Notes: generated by a model from the letters alone, not told the origin. Positions 4,074 through 44,976 are shown, counted from the stretch's first letter. The stretch: 64,000 nucleotides of DNA from Clostridia bacterium (GCA_017482465.1 JAFUMW010000018.1:663-64662), one strand, 5' to 3'. Numbers and translations: made by a program.

Positions 4074-5732
4074 TTATGCCATTGCGTTCGGGAAGAGAGC
4101 GTAGAACCATTCGTTGTATTTGAAAGCAAGACCTTCTTCATCCTCGAAGGAGATATACTTTGTTACAGTAGGATCAGCTCTGAGCTCTTCGATTGCTGTT
4201 GCCAGCCATGTATCAAACTGTGCATATGAAACCGAATCAAGCTCAGCGAAATATTTTTCGCTGATTTTTGCGATATCATCCATAATAGCTTCATCTACAG
4301 CATCTTCATGGAAGAAACCGAAGTAGGGGTCGTCGACGATCTCAAGGTTCTGAGCTTTGCAGTTATCCCAGATGTCGGGTGACGAGCCTTCAGGCGGGTA
4401 TGCAATAAACATGTTACCGGTATACTCAAGAGGAGTGTCGTAATCGGAGTTAAGAGTTCTTACAACTCCGTCAGCATCGAGAGTATAGTGAACATCTTTA
4501 ATGCCGTAAGCAAAGATATTACGCAGAGTCGAGTTTGTGTTAAGTGCGGTAAGCACTTCCATGGATCTTGTGATATCTTTTGTGTATGTGGATATAGCAA
4601 ACATATTTGAGTAAACGGTATTGTCAACATGAGGCTTCTGAAGAACCACTACCTCGTATTCATCCTGATACTTTTCAATGTCAGCGGCATTACCCTTTAC
4701 TATACCAACGGCAAACTCGCCGATGTCTGCTGTACCGTCGCCTAAATAACCGAGTGACTGGTACTTCTTGAGCTGCTTAATGTGGTCAACATAAGAAGTG
4801 ATAGTAAAGAGAATTCTCGGTACACCGTATGCGTCGGCGCTCTTCTGAGCGGAAGCCGCGAGCATGTTACCTACGACCGACTTTTCTCCGTCCTTTGTGA
4901 AGTACTGAATACCAATGGGGTCGAATTCGCCGAGAACGGGAACTATACCGGGTTCATTTGCCGCAACGTCCATTATGAACTCATCAGCGGTGCTGAACAG
5001 CGGGATATCAGCCGCATCATAGTAGTACTTGTCAAGAAGTGCCTTATTAAGGAGCATGTATGTATATTCGCCGATCGGCTTATTGTTGATTATACCGTAT
5101 GTAGCGTTGCCGATCTTGGAAGCTGAAAGAATATTCGGATGAATATATGTTTTCATAAGCTTGCCGGTGGAATTGAGCTCAGTGTCAAGAACCGAAAGAT
5201 GGCCTGCTTCCTGGTATTCAACAAATGTGTGGTAGTCGGGAATAAAGAAAATATCGAGCTGAGAGGGATCGGGTTCGGGATAGATCACCTCAACGATACC
5301 GATCTCGTTTATAGAAGTAAGATCCTCGGAAACTGTTTCTACCGACTCTTCCTCTTTATTGTTCTTGTAAAGCATTGCAACAGCCTTCTTCTGATCGGCT
5401 TCGGCCTGTTCAAGCTTTTTCTGATCGGCTATCTCTTCAAGACGAACTTCAAGGTTTTCCTTATATTCGTCGTATGTGAAAAGGTTGAGCTGTAAAGCTG
5501 TGTTGAATTCAGACTGTGTTACAGCGCTCATTGCTTCTTCAACAAGCGCAACGGCTTCGTCTGTAGTGTTATCGCCCTTGATACCCCAAAGAGTGACCGT
5601 CATGGCGGGCGACTCGTTCGAGCCATCGTTAAGCGTTATTGTGTCAATATCCTCTTCTCCGCCGCAAGCTGTGATAAAGCAGGTTGCGAGAAGAACCATA
5701 GCCAAAAGCAGACATTGTAATCTTTTTTTCAT
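4074..5732 (-). CDS. Large extracellular solute-binding lipoprotein (ABC-type SBP family), orphan
   Basis: Lipoprotein signal MKKRLQCLLLAMVLLATCFITAC|GG. About 550 aa, like the LplA-type sugar-binding lipoproteins of Firmicutes. No permease or ATPase genes are adjacent. Confidence 0.6.
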   Translation of the reverse strand: MKKRLQCLLLAMVLLATCFITACGGEEDIDTITLNDGSNESPAMTVTLWGIKGDNTTDEAVALVEEAMSAVTQSEFNTALQLNLFTYDEYKENLEVRLEEIADQKKLEQAEADQKKAVAMLYKNNKEEESVETVSEDLTSINEIGIVEVIYPEPDPSQLDIFFIPDYHTFVEYQEAGHLSVLDTELNSTGKLMKTYIHPNILSASKIGNATYGIINNKPIGEYTYMLLNKALLDKYYYDAADIPLFSTADEFIMDVAANEPGIVPVLGEFDPIGIQYFTKDGEKSVVGNMLAASAQKSADAYGVPRILFTITSYVDHIKQLKKYQSLGYLGDGTADIGEFAVGIVKGNAADIEKYQDEYEVVVLQKPHVDNTVYSNMFAISTYTKDITRSMEVLTALNTNSTLRNIFAYGIKDVHYTLDADGVVRTLNSDYDTPLEYTGNMFIAYPPEGSSPDIWDNCKAQNLEIVDDPYFGFFHEDAVDEAIMDDIAKISEKYFAELDSVSYAQFDTWLATAIEELRADPTVTKYISFEDEEGLAFKYNEWFYALFPNAMA

Positions 5733-6001: not shown

Positions 6002-7099
6002 TTATTCAAGGAAATCCTTGAGTTTTTTTGATCTTGTGGGATGTCTGAGCTTGCGAAGAGCCTTTGCTTCGATCTGACGGATACGCTCACGTGTGATCTT
6101 GAATTCCTTGCCGACCTCCTCGAGCGTACGCATTCTGCCGTCGATAAGACCGAATCTGAGCTTGAGAACAAGTGCTTCACGGGGGGTGAGCGTGTCAAGC
6201 ACGCTTTGTATTGCTTCCTTTAAGAGTGCGTGGGATGCCGCTTCGGCGGGAGCGGGCGAGTCATCATCCTGAATGAAGTCGCCGAGATGGGTGTCCTCTT
6301 CCTCACCGACAGGGGTTTCAAGAGAAACGGGATCTTGTGCGATCTTCATGATCTCTCTTACTTTATCGGGAGTGGTATTCATCTTTTCGGCGATCTCTTC
6401 GGGAGTAGCTTCGTGTCCGAGCTCCTGTAAGAGCTGTCTTGAATATCTTGAAACCTTGTGGATGGTCTCGACCATATGAACAGGTATACGGATAGTTCTT
6501 GCCTGATCTGCGATAGCACGTGTGATAGCCTGTCGTATCCACCATGTAGCATATGTCGAGAACTTGTAGCCCTTACTGTAGTCGAATTTTTCAACCGCCT
6601 TCATAAGTCCGAGATTACCCTCTTGGATAAGGTCCAAAAAGAACATGCCCTTACCGACGTATCTCTTTGCTATACTTACTACGAGTCTGAGGTTTGCTTC
6701 AACGAGCTTGTCCTTTGCCACCTCATCGCCGTGAGCCATTTTTACGGCAAGATCCTGTTCGGTGTCTGCGTCAAGCAGAGCGACCTTACCGATCTCCTTG
6801 AGATACATTCGTACAGGGTCGTCGATCGAAAGACCTTCCTGCAGAAGCATCTTTTCCATGTCCTCCGCGCTTTCGTATTGCTCAACGTCTTCGGCTATAT
6901 CTTCAAGGTCTACCGGTTCTTCGTCGAGATAATTTATCTCGATACCGTTGTTTTCGAGCTCTTCGTAAATTTTGTCGATTGTCTCAATATCAAGATTCTC
7001 CTCTGGAAAGGATTCGAGTATCTCGCTTGTTGTAAGCGAGCCCTTTGTGCGGCCTTTTTCAAGAAGTTCCTGAAGATTGATCTCCTGATGATTTTCCAT
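6002..7099 (-). CDS. rpoD: RNA polymerase primary sigma factor (sigma-70/SigA)
   Basis: Regions 1.2-4.2 are recognisable: [87 protein letters not shown]. Confidence 0.96.
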
Positions 7100-7134
7100 A
7101 AATCCTCCGTTTTTATATGTAAGAAATATTATAT

Positions 7135-8901
7135 TTATTTTTCTGTGTCCGCTCGCTTCCGTGCGAGAATTTTTTCTATGTCTGAAAGCTCTCCTGTTGA
7201 GCTGTTCTCGTTTTTAAGCTTGTTTATGCTGTCAAGCAGTATATCCTCCGAGTTGAGAGTGAGCTTTTCACGCCTTATCCGAAGCTCGGTTATTCTTCCC
7301 ATCTCGTCGGGGGAAAATTCTTCGCCGAGCATTCCAAACTCGAATTTTCCGGTCTCGTCGGTAAGGTCGAGTATTTTGGCAAAGATCTTTTTATTGAACG
7401 CGGTAAAGAAATCATCCTGCGTCAGCTTTATTTCCCCTTTTTTGACCTTTATAGTGTATTCCGGGTATAAAAGCATGAGGCCGAGAATAGTATCTTCGGC
7501 GCTTGATGCGGCTTTGTTTTTTGCGGCATCGGTATTTATCCTGTCGCCGAAGCCCGCTGTCTGCATGATGATCTTTCTCTTTGTATCACGTTCTGCTTCT
7601 TTGTTTTTTCGCCGATGGGCGCGTTCGGTGTCGGTCTTCAGACTTTCTCGGCTGACCCCGAGTTTTGCGGCGGCAGCACTGCAGGCAAGCTCTCTTTCAA
7701 CATTTGAGTATATGTCGGCAAGCATGTCGCATACCTCGGTGCTTGCCCGGAGCTTTTGATCCGGTATTGCAAGATCGTATTTTTTTAATATTGATTCGAG
7801 CCGAAAATCAAACCTTGACTCACTGTTGTCAAGAAGATGCTTGAACTTGATATTGCCCTTGTCACCGTTTTTGCGAATAAATTCATCGGGGTCCTTTGCT
7901 CCGACGACCTTCAAAACGCTTCCGTCGATGCCTACCTCATGAAGCAGAGAGAGCGCTTTGGAAGCCGCTCTTTGACCGGCTTCATCACTGTCGTATGAAA
8001 CGATGACCTTTTTTGTATATTTTGCCATAATGCGCGATTGTTCGGGGGTGATGGCAGTGCCGAGCGTGGCAACAGCATTTTCAAATCCCGCCGCGTGAAG
8101 CGCGATAACATCCATGTATCCTTCGCATAGGATCAGGCGTTCGCTTGCATTTGCTTTGGCGAAATTGAGTGCAAACAGGTTGCGGCTTTTCTTGAATACC
8201 GGCGTGTCGGACGAGTTCAGATATTTCGGAACCGAATCGTCAAGAACACGTCCTCCAAAGGCAATGACATTTCCCGAAACATCTATTATAGGAAACATTA
8301 CTCGGTTTCTGAACATGTCAAAGTTCTTTCCCGTTTTTTTGCTTACACCGCACAAAAAGCCGATCGCCATCTCCTCGTCGGTATATCCGCGTGCACGCAG
8401 ATAATCGCTCAACGCATTGAAGCTGTTCGGCGCATAGCCGAGACCGAAGCGATTTATTATAGCCTTTGAAAGGCCGCGTTTTTTATACAGGTAATCTCTT
8501 GCCGTTGCGCCTGTTTTTTCATCGTTTAATGACATATGGAAGAATTTCGCGGCGTCGCGGTTCATCGCAAGCAGTTTTTCGCGCCTTATACCCTCGCGTT
8601 CCTGTTCGGGCGAAAGCGGTATTGTGATACCCGCTCTTTTCGCAAGGAATTCAAGCGCTTCCACATATGTCAGATTTTCTGCCTTCATAATAAATGTTAT
8701 AACATCGCCGCCTGCTCCGCAACCAAAGCAATAAAAGCTTTTAGAGGCGCGGAACACGGTGAATGAAGGCGTTTTTTCGTTATGGAACGGGCACAGACCG
8801 TTATAGTTTGAGCCCGCGTGCTTTAGTGTGACGTAAGAGGCAATAACATCTTCGATGTCGCTTCTGAATTTTATTTCTTCAACAATTTCCGGTGAAATCA
8901 A
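7135..8901 (-). CDS. dnaG: DNA primase
   Basis: Zinc-ribbon [13 protein letters not shown]...[11 protein letters not shown] and TOPRIM motifs [21 protein letters not shown]. Apparent TTG start. Sits immediately upstream of rpoD. Confidence 0.95.
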
Positions 8902-37102: not shown

Positions 37103-38308
37103 ATGAAAAAATGGTCGACCATCGCGTGTGACCAATACACGAGCGAGGCTGGCTATTGGAGCGAGGTCGAAGCTCTTGTTGGGGAATCAGAGTCTGCACT
37201 CCGTGTTACTCTGCCCGAGATATACCTCGAAGGAGAAACGGCAGAGCGCATCATAAATATCAACAAGACGATGCACGAGTATACGGCAAACACGCTTGAC
37301 TGCTTTAAGGATTGCGAGATATATCTTGAGCGTACACTTGCCGACGGCCGCGTAAGACACGGACTTATAGGTAAGATAGACCTTGAAAAATACGATTACA
37401 CAAAGGGCGCGCAAACTCTTGTCCGCGCGACCGAGGGAACAGTGCTTTCGCGTATTCCTCCGAGAGTAGAGATACGCCGCGGCGCAGAGATCGAGCTTCC
37501 GCACGTGATGATGCTTATAGACGACCGTGACAACAGCGTTATGGGTGCGCTTGAGGAAGGAAAGCCCCTCTTTGAAACGGCTTACGACTTTGAGCTTATG
37601 CAGAACGGCGGCTCGGTCAAGGGGTATTTTGTTGACGCCGCTACGCAGAAAAAGGTCAATGCCGCGCTTGAAGCGCTCTGCGACATTGACGCGTATAATA
37701 AAAAGTACGGCGTAAATGAAAAAGCGCCCATGCTTTTTGCTGTGGGCGACGGAAATCATTCGCTTGCGAGCGCAAAGGCGTTGTACGAGGAAATAAAGGC
37801 AAAGCTCGGCGAAGCGGCAAAGGATCATCCCGCGAGATACGCGCTTGTAGAGATCGTGAATATCCACGACGCGGCGCTTGAGTTCGAGCCGATCTATCGT
37901 GTAGTGTTCGATACCGATACAAATAAGATCATGAGTGAGCTTAAGGCGTACGCAGAGGCTGATAAGGGCGGCGAGAACGCGTTTGAGATCGAGTGTATTG
38001 GTAAGAGAGTAAACGAAAGGATCGTTATTAAAAATTCAAAGGATGAGCTTGCGGTCGGCGCGCTTCAGGCGTTCTTGGATGCCTACCTTGAAAAGAACGC
38101 AGGCAAGATCGACTACATACACGGAATCGAGTCGACAAAAACGCTTGCCGATGCCGATAACGCAATAGGCTTTATTTTCGAGGGCATGAGCAAGAACGCG
38201 CTGTTCAAGAGCGTAATTGTCGGTGGCTCGCTTCCCAGAAAGACTTTCTCAATGGGAGAAGCAAACGACAAGAGATATTATCTTGAAGCAAGAAAGATCG
38301 TCGAGTGA
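37103..38308 (+). CDS. DUF1015-family protein
   Basis: About 400 aa. ACDQYTSE, LIGKIDLE, FAVGDGNHS motifs match my recollection of DUF1015. Confidence 0.65.
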   Translation: MKKWSTIACDQYTSEAGYWSEVEALVGESESALRVTLPEIYLEGETAERIININKTMHEYTANTLDCFKDCEIYLERTLADGRVRHGLIGKIDLEKYDYTKGAQTLVRATEGTVLSRIPPRVEIRRGAEIELPHVMMLIDDRDNSVMGALEEGKPLFETAYDFELMQNGGSVKGYFVDAATQKKVNAALEALCDIDAYNKKYGVNEKAPMLFAVGDGNHSLASAKALYEEIKAKLGEAAKDHPARYALVEIVNIHDAALEFEPIYRVVFDTDTNKIMSELKAYAEADKGGENAFEIECIGKRVNERIVIKNSKDELAVGALQAFLDAYLEKNAGKIDYIHGIESTKTLADADNAIGFIFEGMSKNALFKSVIVGGSLPRKTFSMGEANDKRYYLEARKIVE

Positions 38309-38310
38309 GA

Positions 38311-38365
38311 AAGAAATAAAACAAACCGGGGAGCTTAAAATACTTCCCGGTTTGTTATTCTTGTA
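38311..38365. terminator. Bidirectional intrinsic terminator at the left edge of the AT-rich island
   Basis: ACAAACCGGGGAG (38321-38333) pairs with CTTCCCGGTTTGT (38343-38355), 13 bp with one mismatch. T-rich tails follow on both strands (plus TTATTCTTGT, minus TTTTATTTCTTTC). The right arm encodes the last codons of the JAB gene. Confidence 0.75.
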
Positions 38366-38757
38366 TCTTGTTTTATTACGTTGTTTTTAGTAACAGAATA
38401 TAGAGTGAGTGTTTTCTTTGGTGTTAGAACAATCCCGAGTAGTATTTGTGACAGATTGTTTGTGGAAATTATTTGTCGCATGTAATATATATCCTCGCTT
38501 GAGGGCTCGATGTTTTGGTGATGGCTGTGTACTATACCGGCAAAAATTATATTATATTCTCTCCATATTTCAATAGTTTTTTCAAGCATTTTGCAGTTTG
38601 GAGAATATGACCTTGGCGAACAAACAGACGGTGTAATATCTAATTCAAAAAAAGATATTACACCGTTTTTGGTGCCTATAATTCCGCCTTGCTCAAATTT
38701 AGGCGAAACTAACAAATTAACAACATTTTTGTAAGTTTTTTGGGAAATCAAAAGCAC
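38335..38757 (-). CDS. JAB/MPN-family (Prok-JAB-like) zinc metalloprotease
   Basis: 140 aa. Conserved Glu context FEQGGIIG, then GIVHSHHQNIEPSSED, which fits the JAMM motif HxH-x6-SxxD. GTG start directly after the upstream TAA, with GGGAG 9 nt upstream. Confidence 0.7.
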   Translation of the reverse strand: MLLISQKTYKNVVNLLVSPKFEQGGIIGTKNGVISFFELDITPSVCSPRSYSPNCKMLEKTIEIWREYNIIFAGIVHSHHQNIEPSSEDIYYMRQIISTNNLSQILLGIVLTPKKTLTLYSVTKNNVIKQDTRITNREVF

Positions 38758-38958
38758 TTATCGCTTCTCCCAACTTGAACATGATGTGTTTGTTTGAGGA
38801 TTTCGGTATGTAGATTTTTCTTTACACCAAAAATAAACGGGTGTATCTTTGGTCGGCCGAGAATAATCGAGATAGCGACATTCTCCGCATAGAGTTGTTT
38901 CGCAAAATTTTCCTTTAGGAATTATAATGTCTTTCATGTTTTTTTCTTTACTTATCAT
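38758..38958 (-). CDS. Small Cys-rich protein (59-66 aa; start ambiguous, ATG 38958 or 38937)
   Basis: Track ORF 38758..39006, shortened because its 5' part overlaps the zinc-finger gene. Contains FCETTLCGECRYLDY...YFWCKEK...SCSSWE (5 Cys). Its stop abuts the JAB start codon. Confidence 0.4.
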   Translation of the reverse strand: MISKEKNMKDIIIPKGKFCETTLCGECRYLDYSRPTKDTPVYFWCKEKSTYRNPQTNTSCSSWEKR

Positions 38959-39127
38959 ATGGATTTTTTCCGCTACCAAGGCATGCGGCGCATTCTTTGC
39001 GACCATCGCCGTTACAGTAACCGCACTTTTTTTCAGTATTTCTGGGATCTTTTCCGGATCCTTTACAAACGGGGCAAATGATTTTTCCGTTTCCGTTACA
39101 TTCTCTGCAAGTTGACATAACTTTCAT
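38948..39127 (-). CDS. Mini-protein made of four DnaJ-type CxxCxGxG zinc-finger motifs (56-59 aa); not in the ORF track
   Basis: My minus-strand translation: M(KVM)STCRECNGNGKIICPVCKGSGKDPRNTEKKCGYCNGDGRKECAACLGSGKNPYDK*. It has four perfect CxxCxGxG repeats. AAGGAAAGGA RBS. Start ATG 39127 or 39118. Confidence 0.6.
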   Translation of the reverse strand: MKVMSTCRECNGNGKIICPVCKGSGKDPRNTEKKCGYCNGDGRKECAACLGSGKNPYDK

Positions 39128-39136
39128 TCCTTTCCT

Positions 39137-39250
39137 TCAGTTTTCCTCAAATTCAGGACATGCAATGTTTTCGGGACGTACATGCTCATCCTTTATCTCG
39201 CAGTAGTTTTCCCTTGAGCAATGTTTGCAATCAGCACACGTTTCTTTCAT
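39137..39250 (-). CDS. 37-aa Cys-rich micro-protein; not in the ORF track
   Basis: My translation: MKETCADCKHCSRENYCEIKDEHVRPENIACPEFEEN*. GGAGG lies 8 nt upstream. Its ATG overlaps the upstream gene's TGA (ATGA at 39247-39250). Confidence 0.5.
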   Translation of the reverse strand: MKETCADCKHCSRENYCEIKDEHVRPENIACPEFEEN

Positions 39251-40329
39251 TTTATTTCCTCCTGTTTTGTTAATTGTTCTACTTTTTCTTTGAGCAAATT
39301 GGAATTCTCATAACACAAATCGGTTGAAAGAATTTTACACGCAACTAGTACAGCAATAGCGTCGCGATATTTGGGTGAATTATAATTGTTTTCTTCTAAT
39401 ATTGTTGGAACAAGTTTTGTGTAAAAGTCGATTTGTTCTTTATCAAGTCTTTTTAATTCATCACTGGAGTTATAAATTGCTTTGTCAAAATTAGATGCTG
39501 CTGAATATATGTTTTGTAAAGCTTGAAGCTTTTCTTTGTCTGGATAATCTTCGCTGTTTATGTAATCGATTTGTTTATTGCTTTTGTTGATAAATTCCGT
39601 TAGTTTTTCGAAGTTTTCTAAAGTTGGAATACGGAAAAACATTTCGTGTTCTACTAATATATCAAAACAAATTGAATACATGGTCAAAGAAGATTTTACA
39701 GCGTCAGTTTTTAACATGTCCATGTACTTTTTGTATGTGTCAGAAGCTTGTTTAATAAGGGTTTCATTTTGTCTATTATGATTTTGATGTGTTAAAGTTT
39801 CGGGAGGAGACACACTGAATTCTATTTCTGTAGATTCACAACCAAATGTTTCAGGTACTTTTTGCCCCTTAGCTACTTCAACTGATATGCTGCTACCATA
39901 TTGAAACGAACGTATCCATGGTATGCTTGCAAGTGCTTGATTTATAGCAAAAGTTAAAGCCTTTATTTGCATATGAGATAACGGGTTTAATCCTAATTGA
40001 AGAAAATTCACAATTAATTCTTCATGACCTTTATCGCCATCGGGGCTTGAGAAACGTTTTTCGAGAACCGAAACTGATGTAGAGGTCAATTCAATGTAAA
40101 ACGGGCGCCCGATTCTTAAAAACCGAATCCAAATCCCATCCATTTTCATTATGCTCTTTACGATACCTTCAACGAGTGCAACGTTTTTATAATCGGAGTA
40201 AAAGCCTTTTAGATAGTTTTGAAAATCTTCTGATTCTTTTTCCGCGTTCGCTTTGTCTTTTTTCTTGACAAAATGATAAATTATTATTCCTACTATTATG
40301 ATTAAAATTAAATTTCCCATATCAAACAT
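39247..40329 (-). CDS. Hypothetical membrane-anchored protein (360 aa, N-terminal TM helix, no recognisable domain)
   Basis: Long ORF in AT-rich DNA. N-terminus MFDMGNLILIIIVGIIIYHFVKKKDK (TM plus positive-inside). The remainder is predicted soluble, with a helical C-terminal half. First gene of the island operon. Confidence 0.6.
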   Translation of the reverse strand: MFDMGNLILIIIVGIIIYHFVKKKDKANAEKESEDFQNYLKGFYSDYKNVALVEGIVKSIMKMDGIWIRFLRIGRPFYIELTSTSVSVLEKRFSSPDGDKGHEELIVNFLQLGLNPLSHMQIKALTFAINQALASIPWIRSFQYGSSISVEVAKGQKVPETFGCESTEIEFSVSPPETLTHQNHNRQNETLIKQASDTYKKYMDMLKTDAVKSSLTMYSICFDILVEHEMFFRIPTLENFEKLTEFINKSNKQIDYINSEDYPDKEKLQALQNIYSAASNFDKAIYNSSDELKRLDKEQIDFYTKLVPTILEENNYNSPKYRDAIAVLVACKILSTDLCYENSNLLKEKVEQLTKQEEIK

Positions 40330-40345
40330 ACGATATCAAACATAC
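40318..40345. repeat. Tandem 14-bp duplication across the start of the 360-aa ORF
   Basis: ATATCAAACATAC occurs at 40319-40331 and again at 40333-40345 (period 14). On the coding strand this is GTATGTTTGATAT x2, so the ATG-TTT-GAT start context is duplicated. Confidence 0.8.
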
Positions 40346-40389
40346 CGAATTTGTTCCTTTCTTGTTATATTGGGTGTGGTTGCCAGATT

Positions 40390-40408
40390 ATGTAACAAAT
40401 CGTTACAT
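40390..40408. promoter_or_regulatory. Palindromic operator O1 in the divergent control region
   Basis: ATGTAAC-AAATC-GTTACAT, a perfect 7-5-7 inverted repeat. Confidence 0.6.
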
Positions 40409-40412
40409 AATT

Positions 40413-40433
40413 ATTGTAACACAATGTTACAAT
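40413..40433. promoter_or_regulatory. Palindromic operator O2 in the divergent control region
   Basis: ATTGTAAC-ACAAT-GTTACAAT, a perfect 8-5-8 inverted repeat sharing the TGTAAC-N5-GTTACA core with O1. The centres are 24 bp apart. TACAAT-like -10 hexamers are embedded on both strands. Confidence 0.6.
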
Positions 40434-40465
40434 AATGTCAAGATATTTTTTGGAGATTTTGGTTT

Positions 40466-40684
40466 ATGAAAATGGAAGGCTTGAAAAGAATACGTAAGGC
40501 AAAAGGCTACAATCAACTCAAGGTAGCGTTTGCCTTGAATATAAGCCGTGAAGCATTGTCGTATTATGAAAACGGCAAACGTAGCCCGGATATAGATATG
40601 CTTTTGAAAATGTCCGAGTATTTTGATGTGTCTATACATTATTTGGTCACGGGAAAAGAATTCGAATCCAAATACAAAAATTAA
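40466..40684 (+). CDS. XRE/Cro-CI-family helix-turn-helix transcriptional regulator
   Basis: 72 aa. LKRIRKAKGYNQLKVAFALNISREALSYYENGKRSPDIDMLLKMSEYFDVSIHYLV is a textbook HTH_3 domain. GGAG RBS at 40448-40451. Confidence 0.85.
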   Translation: MKMEGLKRIRKAKGYNQLKVAFALNISREALSYYENGKRSPDIDMLLKMSEYFDVSIHYLVTGKEFESKYKN

Positions 40685-40718
40685 AACAGGACTGTTCCGT
40701 TTTGGAAACAGTCCTGTT
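40685..40718. terminator. Bidirectional intrinsic terminator at the right edge of the island
   Basis: AACAGGACTGTTCC ... GGAAACAGTCCTGTT stem (one bulge). T-rich tails on both strands (minus TTTTAATTTTT, plus GTATTATTTCTT). Sits between the XRE gene (+) and metI (-). Confidence 0.75.
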
Positions 40719-40721
40719 GTA

Positions 40722-41426
40722 TTATTTCTTAAGTCTTTTATCCGACTTTGCCGCAAGGCGTGTGCCGATGCTCTGGAATATCTGCACCATTACAATAAGC
40801 AATATCACCGCTATCAGCATAACAAGGTACTTGTATCTGTAATAGCCGTAGTTTATCGCTATCTTACCAAGTCCGCCGCCGCCGATGATTCCGCTCATCG
40901 CGCTGTAACCGAGTATCGTTATCACCGCTGTTGTTGCGTTTGTTATAAGCGAGGGCACGCTTTCGGGTATCATCACCTTCGTGATTATTTGAAAGGGTGT
41001 CGCGCCCATGCTTTGTGCCGCTTCGATTATGTTTGGGCTGACTTCGCGTAAGCTTGATTCAACAAGTCTCGCCACAAATGGGAACGCCGCTATTACAAGC
41101 GGGACTATCGACGCTACCGTGCCGACTGCAGTTCCCACGATCAGGCGTGTGAGAGGGAAAACAAGTATCATAAGTATCAAAAACGGTACCGAACGCAGAA
41201 GATTTATTACCACGTTAAGTATCTGCATCAACCATGTGGGCAGAGGCAGAACACCGTTTTTCTCTCCGGCGACCAGAAGTACACCGAGCGGAAGTCCGAG
41301 AACTATCGCAAATGCCGTGGACAGAACGGTCACGTAAAGAGTTTCCCACACTGCGGTAGGAAATTCGGAAACAAGTATCGCCAATGCTTCTTGGAATGCC
41401 TCATAAGAAAACACCTTATCAAACAT
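40722..41426 (-). CDS. metI: Methionine ABC transporter permease
   Basis: 234 aa, five TM segments, MetI-type EAA-loop region (EAAQSMGATPFQII). Operon with metN and metQ. Confidence 0.88.
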   Translation of the reverse strand: MFDKVFSYEAFQEALAILVSEFPTAVWETLYVTVLSTAFAIVLGLPLGVLLVAGEKNGVLPLPTWLMQILNVVINLLRSVPFLILMILVFPLTRLIVGTAVGTVASIVPLVIAAFPFVARLVESSLREVSPNIIEAAQSMGATPFQIITKVMIPESVPSLITNATTAVITILGYSAMSGIIGGGGLGKIAINYGYYRYKYLVMLIAVILLIVMVQIFQSIGTRLAAKSDKRLKK

Positions 41427-42510: not shown

Positions 42511-43362
42511 TTATTTAAGTGCGTCAAGGGTTGTCTGCTTGCCGCCGTAGAGACCGAGGGGTTCAACGTGGATAGCAGCCGCGGAAACAATGTGAGTTCC
42601 GTTTTCTGCATTGAAGTCGTCAAGGTAGGGTGTGTGCTGGAAGTAGTTAGCGTCGATCTCGCCGCTTTCAACAACGTTGTTGGGCTGTACATAGTCGGTA
42701 AACTCAATGATATCAAGTGTGATATTCTTTTCGGCAAGGATACCCTTTGCGACAGCAAGGATCTCTGCGTGAGGAGCGGGAGAAGCCGCAACCGATATTG
42801 TTTCGCCGTCAAGCGCCGCGTAGTCAACGTCTGCCGCGTATCCGTCGCCGGGCTCTTCAACAACGCTTACAACGGCGCCTGCATATGTTTCGGTGATATA
42901 ATCTGCAACAGCCTTGCTTTCAAGAGCTGCTACGAGTGCCTTGATCTTGTCTGTGTTCTCATTTCCTTCCTTAACAGCTACGATGTTGCTGTAAGCGGAG
43001 GAGGAGCCTTCCATTTCAAGAGCGTCTTCAATGGGGTTCATTTCAGCGGCGATCGCATAGTTGGAGTTGATTATAGCATAGTCAACATCCTGAAGGATGT
43101 TGGGAAGCTGAGCCGCTTCGACTTCCTTGAATTCAATGTTCTTGGGATTGTTTTCGATGTCGAGGATAGTAGCCGTGATGCCTGCGTCTTCTTTAAGAGT
43201 GATATAGCCGAGAGATTCGAGAAGAAGAAGAGCGCGGGCTTCGTTTGTGGTATCGTTGGGAACAGCAATAGTAAGTGCGCTGTCATTTGAGCAAGAGGAA
43301 AGTGCAAAAGCGGATGTAAGTAAAAGAATTGTTGCGAGAATAAAAGATAATGCCTTTTTCAT
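42511..43362 (-). CDS. metQ: MetQ/NlpA-family methionine-binding lipoprotein
   Basis: Lipobox LSSC after MKKALSFILATILLLTSAFA. NlpA-family body (..DANYFQHTPYL..). Confidence 0.88.
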   Translation of the reverse strand: MKKALSFILATILLLTSAFALSSCSNDSALTIAVPNDTTNEARALLLLESLGYITLKEDAGITATILDIENNPKNIEFKEVEAAQLPNILQDVDYAIINSNYAIAAEMNPIEDALEMEGSSSAYSNIVAVKEGNENTDKIKALVAALESKAVADYITETYAGAVVSVVEEPGDGYAADVDYAALDGETISVAASPAPHAEILAVAKGILAEKNITLDIIEFTDYVQPNNVVESGEIDANYFQHTPYLDDFNAENGTHIVSAAAIHVEPLGLYGGKQTTLDALK

Positions 43363-43437
43363 GATTGTTTCTCCTTTAATATATGAAAATTAATTAGGGA
43401 ACGATTTTGAGTCGGAGCTGCAGCGTACGCAAAAGCG

Positions 43438-43474
43438 AAATCAAATAAGGGAAGCCTCCGATGAAGCTTCCCCC
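43438..43474 (-). terminator. Intrinsic terminator/attenuator in the metQNI leader
   Basis: On the minus strand, GGGAAGC-ttcatcggag-GCTTCCC is followed by TTATTTGATTT. It lies about 25 nt after the leader-ORF stop and about 75 nt before the metQ ATG. Confidence 0.55.
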
Positions 43475-43496
43475 GAAATTTCGTTATCGTACAGTT

Positions 43497-43610
43497 TTAT
43501 TCTGCGCGATCTGTGACAGAAAGCATACCGGAATTATCAGCATAGAAAAACTTGCACATGCTGCACATGTACATTTCTGTCATATTCATCATAGTCTGCT
43601 GCTTCTTCAT
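43497..43610 (-). CDS. Putative Met-rich leader peptide (37 aa) of the metQNI operon
   Basis: AAAGGAG is 8 nt before ATG 43610. The peptide is MKKQQTMMNMTEMYMCSMCKFFYADNSGMLSVTDRAE*, with 8 Met and 2 Cys, and 6 of residues 7-18 are Met. This is the internal part of track ORF 43497..43730. Confidence 0.45.
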   Translation of the reverse strand: MKKQQTMMNMTEMYMCSMCKFFYADNSGMLSVTDRAE

Positions 43611-43668
43611 GATGCTTTCTCCTTTCGCCAAAACTGCTTTTGTGCACGGAGTATCTCCGCTTGCCGAC

Positions 43669-43697
43669 ATTATATCACGTAAAAACGCATATGTCAA
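43669..43697 (-). promoter_or_regulatory. Consensus sigma-A promoter of the met leader/metQNI operon
   Basis: On the minus strand, TTGACA (43692-43697), 17-nt spacer, TGaTATAAT (TATAAT at 43669-43674). Both hexamers match consensus perfectly and there is an extended -10. Confidence 0.65.
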
Positions 43698-43716
43698 TAG
43701 GTGAAAGAAAAAATTT

Positions 43717-44175
43717 TTATTCAACTTCAAGATCGGGTATGACAGAGGAATTGCTCTTTACCGATTTGAGTACAAAATGAGTTCTTGTAGACTGTACGCC
43801 CGACACGCTCTTGATCTTTCTGTGAAGCTTTTCAAGGCTGTCTGACGAGTCTGTGAAGATTTTGAGCATAAAGTCATATTCGCCGGTGAGATAATAGCAG
43901 GACTGTATGCTTTCGGTCTCTCTTACCATTTCAGCGAAAACATCGTAGAATTTGGGGTGCTCAAGGCTTACCTCCATAAGTGCGATGAGATCGTTGCCGA
44001 GCTGTTTCTGGTTGAGAGTGATGGTGTATCTTTCGATCGTATTGTTCGCTTCAAGCTTTTTTATGCGTTCGATAACAGCTGAGACAGACAAATTGATCTT
44101 TTTGCTTATATCAGAGGCTTTCATTCGCGCGTTGTCTTTGAGACAGGAGAGTATTTCGAGATCGATTTTATCCAT
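43717..44175 (-). CDS. Lrp/AsnC-family transcriptional regulator
   Basis: 152 aa. N-terminal HTH (LDKIDLEILSCLKDNARMKASDISKKINLSVSAVIERIKKLE) and a C-terminal RAM/AsnC ligand-binding domain. Confidence 0.85.
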   Translation of the reverse strand: MDKIDLEILSCLKDNARMKASDISKKINLSVSAVIERIKKLEANNTIERYTITLNQKQLGNDLIALMEVSLEHPKFYDVFAEMVRETESIQSCYYLTGEYDFMLKIFTDSSDSLEKLHRKIKSVSGVQSTRTHFVLKSVKSNSSVIPDLEVE

Positions 44176-44344
44176 GATGTTGCTCCTTTTGCGGTATTCG
44201 CCGTATTAATTTTATTATCATTTCCATTATACCAAAATAATTTCGGCATGTCAAGGCTAATCGCGTGAAATTGTTGAAAAGTGACGTATTTTGTCGTTAA
44301 AATGTCAAAAAATCATAAAAAAGCGAAAATATTTTCCAAATCTA

Positions 44345-44373
44345 TTGCACAAACGTGTACTTTTGTGTATAAT
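44345..44373 (+). promoter_or_regulatory. Putative sigma-A promoter for the phosphoribosyltransferase gene
   Basis: TTGCAC (44345-44350), 17-nt spacer, TGtgTATAAT region (TATAAT at 44368-44373). Confidence 0.55.
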
Positions 44374-44415
44374 TCAATAGGATACAATTATTTTTTACAT
44401 AATGAGGTATTTATC

Positions 44416-44976
44416 ATGAAAGAATACTATCGCATAAACGTGGCGGGCGTTGAACGAGATCTCAAGCTGTTTCCTGTAAGCGACACGCTTTCGATAGCCG
44501 CATTTATTTTGTTCGGAGACGTTGAGCTTACCTGCGCCAGCGCAAGCGCGCTTGCTAAGATCGCTCCCGAGCATGATATCCTTGTGACCGCCGAGGCAAA
44601 GAGCATCCCGCTTATCCATGAGATGGCAAGGCAGCTTGGCGAGAACGAATACGTTGTCGCGAGAAAGGGCCCCAAGGTCTATATGGAAGATATCGTCACT
44701 GTGACGGTAAATTCGATCACTACCAAAAACGAACAGACTCTTTGCGTAGGTAAAAGAGAGGCTGATCTTATGCGCGGCAAGCGTGTGCTTATCATTGACG
44801 ATGTAATAAGCACGGGTGAATCGCTTAAAGCGTTAGAAGAACTCGTTATAGCTACAGGCGGTCATATAGTAGGCAGAATGGCGGTGCTTGCCGAAGGCGA
44901 AGCAAGCAAACGCGAGGATATAACCGTGCTTGCCCCCCTTCCCCTGTTCGACTCAGACGGAGAGCCGCTCAACTGA
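44416..44976 (+). CDS. Phosphoribosyltransferase-family protein (adenine/purine PRT-like)
   Basis: PRPP-binding motif VLIIDDVISTGES. Start at ATG 44416 (TGAGGT RBS). The track ORF's 45 extra N-terminal residues cover the promoter. Confidence 0.7.
   Translation: MKEYYRINVAGVERDLKLFPVSDTLSIAAFILFGDVELTCASASALAKIAPEHDILVTAEAKSIPLIHEMARQLGENEYVVARKGPKVYMEDIVTVTVNSITTKNEQTLCVGKREADLMRGKRVLIIDDVISTGESLKALEELVIATGGHIVGRMAVLAEGEASKREDITVLAPLPLFDSDGEPLN

Follow-up and report, generated by a model that had tools for sequence, protein, structure and literature searches.

An AT-rich islet between DUF1015 and metI in a Clostridia genome: a probable horizontally acquired member of a rare cassette family built on a Cys4 mini-protein and a JAB/JAMM protease

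We analyzed a 64,000-nucleotide stretch of a Clostridia bacterium genome (GCA_017482465.1, JAFUMW010000018.1:663-64662; referred to below as the window, with positions counted from its first nucleotide), and within it the short AT-rich island that lies between the genes for a DUF1015 protein and the methionine permease MetI. Our favored interpretation, which we hold with somewhat better than even confidence, is that positions ~38357-40684 represent an islet of 2.3 kb that was gained by horizontal transfer and inserted where the convergent DUF1015 and metI genes meet, and that this islet carries a self-regulated accessory operon belonging to a rare cassette family of gut Clostridia. The operon comprises five genes, TM360, p37, ZnF59, p60 and JAB, and is transcribed divergently from a gene for a helix-turn-helix (HTH) regulator. 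The HTH / p60-JAB cassette family to which these genes belong is rare, modular and undescribed.

Base composition set the island sharply apart from its surroundings. The G+C content of positions 38309-40721 was 34.4%, as compared with 47.2% in the remaining window, and the minimum of all 2.4 kb windows, 0.344, fell at position 38351 (mean 0.468, standard deviation 0.028). Sliding-window G+C dropped from 0.47-0.55 in recG, rarA and DUF1015 to 0.28-0.40 at ~38250-40800, and rose again in metI. The tetranucleotide distance between the island and the remaining window was 0.537 (z = 6.6), the maximum found in the window, and third-position G+C (GC3) ranged from 0.27 to 0.42 in the six island genes, versus 0.49-0.58 in six flanking genes (those for RecG, RarA, DUF1015 and MetINQ). 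The shift in composition was abrupt and coincided with gene boundaries. In this respect, the island deviates as a classical genomic island does. A first-pass annotation of this DNA, made from the sequence alone, had described an AT-rich dip with six open reading frames (ORFs) set between core genes, and had suggested a foreign origin for it. The dip was reproduced by all three measures, all six ORFs are present in the ORF list, the flanks are indeed DUF1015 and a MetI-type permease, and the island appears to interrupt a core-gene context.

The suggested foreign origin is supported by this deviant composition and, more strongly, by the presence of the same cassette at an unrelated site in another lineage of gut Clostridia, where it lies ~11 G+C points below its flanks. 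At three loci (labeled L084, L086 and L096; other loci are labeled likewise), the cassette sits between a GH2 gene and rplQ in the order HTH76 divergent from TM373-ZnF-p58-JAB. At the rplQ site, the cassette had a G+C content of 0.34 and 0.31, where its flanks reached ~0.45 and ~0.43. Such relatives are scarce. Word-indexed searches of 5.8 billion clusters with TM360 and JAB returned the query proteins only, while an exhaustive phmmer search of 1.84 billion cluster representatives found four relatives of TM360, and a JAB profile run against the 5.8 billion clusters found ten clusters of the JAB subfamily.

Both ends of the island are marked by hairpins that fold on either strand. The left boundary hairpin (38309-38368, inverted repeat I2) is the bidirectional terminator of DUF1015; its stem pairs ~38319-38333 with 38343-38356, and it folds at -23.9 kcal/mol on the plus strand and -20.6 kcal/mol on the minus strand, with U-rich tails. 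The right boundary hairpin (40685-40718), a bidirectional terminator common to the HTH gene and metI, was called by a terminator scan as 14 pairs followed by a T-run and folds at -20.8 and -21.2 kcal/mol; the metI stop lies at 40722. The scan called the right hairpin only, since the loop of the left one measures 9 nt. The 3'-terminal codons of JAB, I-T-N-R-E-V-F-stop, are part of the DUF1015 hairpin: they occupy its right arm and its loop, with the stop codon (38335-37) within the loop. The JAB protein of the window exceeds its closest homologues by 4-5 residues, and the surplus codons are those of the hairpin arm, as would be expected of an ORF that continues out of the insert and into the terminator of the host. 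The simplest reading of this sequence is that the host-island junction on the JAB side lies at ~38357 and that the JAB ORF runs on into the host terminator. The JAB ORF may have lost its own 3' end, so as to end now at the terminator of the host gene.

The marks of mobility that a classical island would carry were not found. Domain and profile scans of the island ORFs returned neither an integrase nor a transposase, the tRNA scan found no tRNA in the window and hence no tRNA target, and no Rfam match was obtained between 36000 and 46000. No direct repeat of at least 8 nt spanned the junctions, the single common 7-mer, TAAAACA, being at chance level, and a search of the junctions for target-site duplications or terminal inverted repeats likewise gave chance-level matches only. 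The earlier description of two bidirectional terminators, of a JAB gene ending (..NREVF*) inside one of them, and of an island lacking any mobility gene or flanking repeat was thus upheld by sequence reading, folding, domain scans and the junction repeat search.

The HTH gene (40466-40684, plus strand) encodes a 72-aa protein of the XRE family (HTH_3, 1.8e-17). It is 64% identical to its counterparts in L084 and L096, and matches the PADLOC models HTH_VI, RmrA and capH (8.6e-5) as well as RstR-like repressors and the phage families phrog_8 and phrog_3. The 136-nt intergenic region that separates it from the operon contains a near-consensus promoter, TTGACA / 17 nt / TG-TACAAT, with a scan score of 11/12 including the TG. 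Within the operon control region (40391-40441), the -35 element TTGACA occupies 40441-40436 and the TG-extended -10 element TACAAT occupies 40418-40413. Two palindromic putative operators of the form TGTAAC-N5-GTTACA (40391-40407 and 40415-40431, repeat D15) overlap this promoter, including its -10 element; this motif occurs twice in the window, against 0.10 occurrences expected. The promoter and operator block is conserved in four loci (the window, L084, L096 and L085), yet the TM360 proteins are only 27-30% identical.

At the distal end of the operon lies JAB (38335-38757, minus strand), which encodes a predicted 140-aa zinc metalloprotease of the JAB/JAMM (MPN+) type with its last 5-6 codons taken from the host hairpin. 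By sequence, this assignment was weak. The protein scored 16 bits against the Pfam Prok-JAB gathering cut-off of 25 (E = 0.011), a PADLOC JAB model matched it at 2e-5, with Cap3-type JAB models as the best PADLOC matches, and a sequence search of the PDB returned noise only. The assignment was settled by the motif residues and by the fold. The residues E22, H77, H79, S86 and D89 (the histidines as H77-S-H79) are invariant in 10 JAB homologues and form the JAMM motif E ... H-x-H-x(7)-S-x-x-D, but with a spacing of 6 rather than 7 after HxH. An AlphaFold model of JAB (predicted local distance difference test, pLDDT, 94; predicted template modeling score, pTM, 0.88) had Pyrococcus furiosus JAMM1 (PfJAMM1, 5lda) as its top Foldseek match (TMq 0.81, TMt 0.86, root-mean-square deviation 1.9 Å), followed by Cap3 (9ild), AMSH/Sst2, Rpn11 and BRCC36, with BubCD (9ea4) also among the matches; the probability was 1.00 for PfJAMM1, Cap3, AMSH, Rpn11 and BRCC36. 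The model therefore has an MPN fold, and the island JAB is, as judged from its sequence, a divergent JAB/JAMM subfamily member with complete catalytic residues.

A perfect 14-bp hairpin (38628-38666, minus strand, inverted repeat I15) lies inside the JAB ORF over the codons for NGVISFFELDITP, with arms ACGGTGTAATATCT and AGATATTACACCGT and a loop of 11. The same position also folds in L084 (about 4148-4212) and L096, with 13 bp, and in L086 (about 1230-1275) the stem reaches 21 bp, with three double compensatory non-synonymous changes and two G.U pairs. The JAB coding region of L087 (about 110-180) folds too, in another register. Synonymous-codon resampling gave z = -2.5 for the window, -4.4 for L086 and -3.3 for L087, and ~0 in distant JAB clades. 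The sense strand is more stable than the antisense strand, which suggests that the hairpin is an element of the mRNA.

Immediately upstream, p60 (38758-38937, minus strand) encodes a small 59-aa protein with a Cys4 pattern (CxxC...C...C), and its stop codon abuts the JAB start. The four cysteines, C18, C21, C39 and C54, are invariant in the family alignment (A4), and p60 adjoins JAB in the window, L084, L086, L088-L097, L099, L100, L102 and L104-L108. Weak DUF7140 matches were obtained for 5/8 p60 members, a p60 profile gave noise only against the PDB, and our literature searches turned up no account of a module of the p60-JAB or DUF7140 kind.

The remaining genes of the operon lie between the promoter and p60. 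TM360, the first gene (39247-40329, minus strand), encodes an N-terminal membrane anchor (residues ~5-22), a Lys-rich linker, an alpha/beta domain and a helical C-terminal domain. The order of hydrophobic anchor and Lys-rich stretch suggests that the bulk of the protein is cytoplasmic. TM360 had no consistent match among Pfam, PHROG, NCBIfam, PADLOC and PDB profiles. The second gene, p37 (39137-39250, minus strand; its ATG overlaps the TM360 stop as ATGA), encodes a Cys-rich protein of 37 aa whose pattern C-x2-C-x2-C ... C ... C-P (CxxCxxC...C...CP) resembles that of the ligands of a single [4Fe-4S] mini-ferredoxin; scans of the profile libraries gave no family match for it. ZnF59 (38948-39127, minus strand) is a stand-alone DnaJ-type cysteine-rich domain of 59 aa with four CxxCxGxG repeats, recognized by BSD2_CRD (31.9 bits, cut-off 27) and scoring 30.6 bits against DnaJ_CXXCXGXG, under the cut-off of 32.7. 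It also matches phrog_3931 and, weakly, anti-TRAP, and has homologues in L084 and L086. Like the stand-alone DnaJ cysteine-rich proteins anti-TRAP/RtpA and BSD2, ZnF59 consists of the four repeats; unlike them, it has no TRAP or Rubisco context and is swapped together with TM360. The p37 gene is absent from L084; in L086 both of its halves are kept in spite of a frameshift (659-770). A frameshift also occurs in the ZnF gene of L084 (3744-3901), again with both halves conserved as protein; these frameshifts could be low-coverage assembly errors (L084 coverage is 2.8x) or incipient pseudogenes.

Comparison of the related loci shows that p60-JAB is a constant chassis, usually accompanied by an HTH regulator, and that exchange affects the genes that lie between the promoter and p60. 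L084 and L096 are 98% identical through GH2, HTH and promoter, and 93% identical through p58, JAB and rplQ. Between these homologous ends, L084 carries TM373 and ZnF, and L096 carries an unrelated multi-pass membrane protein of 248 aa (TM248) and no ZnF. A second exchange was seen in the distant clade, in which p62-JAB has an HTH-AAA_28-CYTH protein as its partner, plus one or two proteins of unknown type. Here, L092 (4719-7780) and L104 (9757-9780) differ by a clean 3062-bp indel with 94-95% identity on both sides. The indel consists of the HTH-AAA_28-CYTH / 191-aa / 235-aa module, sits between a SIR2-Macro operon and p62-JAB, and stops 57 bp before the p62 start codon. The point of cargo exchange is thus just upstream of p60 in two independent lineages. 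The long upstream operon of L092 and L104 encodes a Lon-like AAA protein, six unknown proteins, Metallophos, SIR2 and Macro, and contained no PADLOC system and no PHROG structural module.

Further loci vary the same theme. L099 is an AT-rich mini-island (G+C of 0.28 vs 0.43) with HTH, p60, JAB and a different anchored protein, and in L087 JAB is followed by TM360 split into two genes (alignment A2). The cargo modules are truly different, because profile comparison of the TM360 family with TM161 of L099 and p403 of L088 found no homology. The cassette of L097 and L100 reads HTH73 / JAB145 / p60-like p69 / DUF1292 / zinc-ribbon-TM230 / HerA-like 840-aa protein. The two copies are 97.6% identical on two human-gut contigs, with a large serine recombinase (81-1196) 1.3 kb upstream in L097 and, on the second contig, homology that begins immediately after ppdK; this cassette may be a larger mobile element. 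Conflict-type domains occur near several distant relatives, namely TIR (L088), SIR2 with Macro, Metallophos and Lon (L092 and L104), and HerA ATPase (L097 and L100).

In its size and setting, the island resembles small islets or defence-hotspot cassettes that lack mobility genes and are exchanged by recombination via conserved flanks: it is compact, foreign in composition and placed between convergent core genes at terminators, its cassette is found at different sites in different lineages, and cargo is replaced between conserved ends. It differs in that the conserved flanks belong to the cassette itself (HTH and promoter on one side, p60-JAB on the other) and not to host core genes. Arrival of the island and swapping of its cargo probably took place by recombination via the conserved cassette ends or flanking DNA; recombination via the conserved ends explains the swapping, and does not explain the first arrival.

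The cassette is probably a conflict or defence module, although the evidence for a defence role is circumstantial. It has features typical of defence or addiction modules: a repressor with operators over a strong promoter, a membrane protein encoded first in the operon, cargo that evolves fast and can be exchanged, an occurrence that is patchy and AT-rich, and conflict-type domains near its distant relatives. In the mechanism that we propose, the repressor would hold both the operon and its own gene off, and a stress or phage signal would derepress the operon. The p60-JAB pair would then serve as a proteolytic switch that cleaves the repressor or processes the cargo, by analogy with CapH/CapP and ImmR/ImmA, and would do so independently of ubiquitin-like conjugation. 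TM360 and its zinc-finger partner would act at the membrane as the effector of a conflict system, whether for abortive-infection defence or for addiction. Only tentatively, and with confidence well short of even, we suggest that the Cys4 mini-protein and the minimal JAMM form a new, ubiquitin-independent proteolytic switch that is the portable core of modular conflict or defence cassettes, that effectors are plugged in at one fixed point just upstream of p60, and that the hairpin in the JAB mRNA may tune the dosage of the protease. Equally tentative is the set of effector modules that this switch would serve, which would include membrane proteins, the HerA ATPase and HTH-AAA-CYTH sensors.

The closest mechanistic precedent would be the logic of CapH/CapP, ImmR/ImmA and DdrO/IrrE, with the JAMM and its Cys4 partner in the role of the protease. 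In CapH/CapP, the XRE repressor is inactivated by a metalloprotease when a stress signal is received (bioRxiv 10.1101/2022.04.27.489752). Like these systems, the island combines an XRE repressor, an adjacent accessory operon whose promoter is covered by palindromic sites, and a (here predicted) zinc metalloprotease at the locus, so that by its sequence the control region is of the CapH/CapP type. Unlike CapH/CapP, the island protease has the JAB/JAMM fold instead of M78/COG2856, is encoded last in the operon and has a Cys4 mini-protein as its partner in every case; an ImmA/IrrE (M78 / COG2856) domain, the partner protease of CapH, was found nowhere in the island. Cleavage of the repressor, a feature of CapH/CapP, is for the island something that we purely infer. 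With Cap3 of type II CBASS and the JAB proteins of Bil and Bub, the island shares a minimal stand-alone JAMM at the 3' end of a putative conflict operon. Unlike CBASS, Bil and Bub, neither the island nor any related locus contained a CD-NTase, E1/E2 (Cap2), ubiquitin-like protein or effector of those systems. PfJAMM1, a SAMP2 deconjugase, has the same minimal domain size and E...HxH...S..D site and is the closest solved structure; it differs from the island JAB in its ~20% identity and its spacing of 7 after HxH, and in that JAB has no SAMP/ThiS/MoaD-like beta-grasp partner, its partner being the Cys4 protein, which has no Gly-Gly C-terminus.

Several observations weigh against acquisition of a conflict or defence module, and are collected here. 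All functional statements on the cassette are drawn from gene context. Among the island proteins, PADLOC-DB v2 gave generic HTH matches and weak JAB matches only, with none for TM360, p37, p60 or ZnF59, and PADLOC and PHROG scans of the neighbors in L088, L092, L097 and L104 recognized no defence system or phage module save a HerA/mad8-like match and a weak PDC match. The TIR, SIR2 and Macro neighbors are confined to the distant p62-JAB clade and do not accompany cassettes of the TM360 type. The near absence of the cassette from phage and plasmid collections calls for caution about a role in defence. No substrate of JAB is evident, we know of no case of repressor cleavage by any JAMM peptidase, and a single-sequence AlphaFold prediction of TM360 reached a pLDDT of 35 and gave no usable structure. 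Lastly, no empty site was retrieved among 80 GTDB DUF1015 loci (identity at most 56%, no RecG/RarA/MetI synteny, no island gene nearby), since even the closest genomes are too far removed and do not share the synteny. Three of the loci examined (L022, L036 and L068) carry an Oscillospiraceae-like DUF1015 (50-52% identity) filed under the names of Alistipes and Escherichia coli metagenome-assembled genomes (MAGs), and are probably mis-binned contigs.

The most serious rival, though an unlikely one, is that p60-JAB is a type-II-like toxin-antitoxin (TA) or addiction pair, with a zinc-binding antitoxin and a protease toxin, that hitch-hikes at the 3' ends of operons, the membrane protein and HTH being unrelated passengers. 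The genes are small, overlap or abut, and stand in antitoxin-toxin order; their distribution is patchy, AT-rich and free of mobility genes; and in L104-L108 the pair closes the SIR2/Macro operon on its own, whereas at other loci it follows various upstream modules. Pairs of an XRE protein with a metalloprotease are also a known TA theme. What speaks against a hitch-hiking pair is that an HTH gene or fused HTH domain is present in most loci and that it is the cargo, and not p60, that has the operators upstream of it. Moreover, p60 and JAB match no TA family, only the separate HTH resembling antitoxins, and JAB precedes p69 in L097 and L100, the reverse of the usual order.

Slightly less probable still is that the islet is a decayed prophage or integrative-element remnant, that is, a repressor from a lysogeny module accompanied by moron genes, the rest of the element having been deleted. 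The phage repressor families matched by the HTH (phrog_8, phrog_3 and RstR-like), the phrog_3931 match of ZnF59, the recombinase upstream of the L097 cassette and a viral contig from IMG/VR that carries a JAB gene (L103) would all agree with such an origin. Against this, the islet holds no other phage gene, and cassettes of the TM360 type are alike in their compact size and in their gene ends across two unrelated sites. In the mobile-element collections, GenBank phages gave one weak match and plasmids none, and IMG/VR gave the one JAB locus and none with p60. The L103 JAB (6536-8411) is distant, with HSHP-x7-S-xx-D spacing, no p60 and a G+C of 0.29 vs 0.43; it directly follows a 485-aa multi-pass membrane protein, between holin-like small transmembrane proteins and a ParB-like gene.

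We regard as very improbable a ribosomal-peptide or bacteriocin-like locus, in which p37, ZnF59 and p60 would be precursors, JAB the processing protease and TM360 the immunity protein, with a regulator. Three small Cys-rich ORFs do lie together with a protease, a membrane protein and an HTH gene, and two TM360-family members show faint YxzE-like bacteriocin matches (E about 0.1). But no modification enzyme, leader/core architecture, exporter or secretion signal was found, the four-repeat DnaJ zinc finger of ZnF59 and the invariant Cys4 zinc-site pattern of p60 both look folded and intracellular, and JAMM enzymes are cytoplasmic isopeptidases.

Of the same very low probability is a native or ancestral locus, or an assembly or binning chimera, with the AT-richness due to fast evolution or a contig mis-join: two ENA scaffolds (at 38708 and 38723) and a Logan contig (at 38674) do break off within the JAB gene and the DUF1015 synteny is conserved in no relative, but the Logan contig overlaps scaffold_1080 by 50 nt, the NCBI MAG contig covers the whole region, each host-island junction is supported, well inside contigs, by independent assemblies of the same sample (L081, L082 and L083), the composition shifts abruptly at gene boundaries, and the cassette is present at other loci. 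The assembly is sound, in that the JAB ORF is continuous over the break and aligns at full length with its homologues. Exact-protein look-ups of DUF1015 and MetI returned the same sample only. All three same-sample contig ends (38674-38723) fall within 50 nt, beside the JAB-internal hairpin; a coverage drop, strain heterogeneity or an effect of the hairpin could lie behind this clustering. Elsewhere in the window, a second and milder low-GC stretch (0.32-0.44) was observed at 43200-44450, upstream of metQ and around a gene for an AsnC/MarR-type regulator; no riboswitch or T-box was detected upstream of metQ (Rfam, E <= 0.1).

Returning to the interpretation of the island as an acquired, self-regulated cassette, it defines testable parts: a repressor together with its operators, an orphan protein as the proposed membrane effector, the zinc finger that partners it, and a protease module of two genes. 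It also provides a clean case in nature of a 2 kb cassette without a mobility gene of its own that exchanges its cargo. For annotation, the lesson is that a system complete with its regulation can fit into a tiny AT-rich islet flanked by core genes and be missed by every current family library. If the proposed switch is real, it would constitute a JAB-based regulatory core that works without ubiquitin-like conjugation, and the roles of JAMM proteins in bacterial immunity would extend past Cap3, Bil and Bub.

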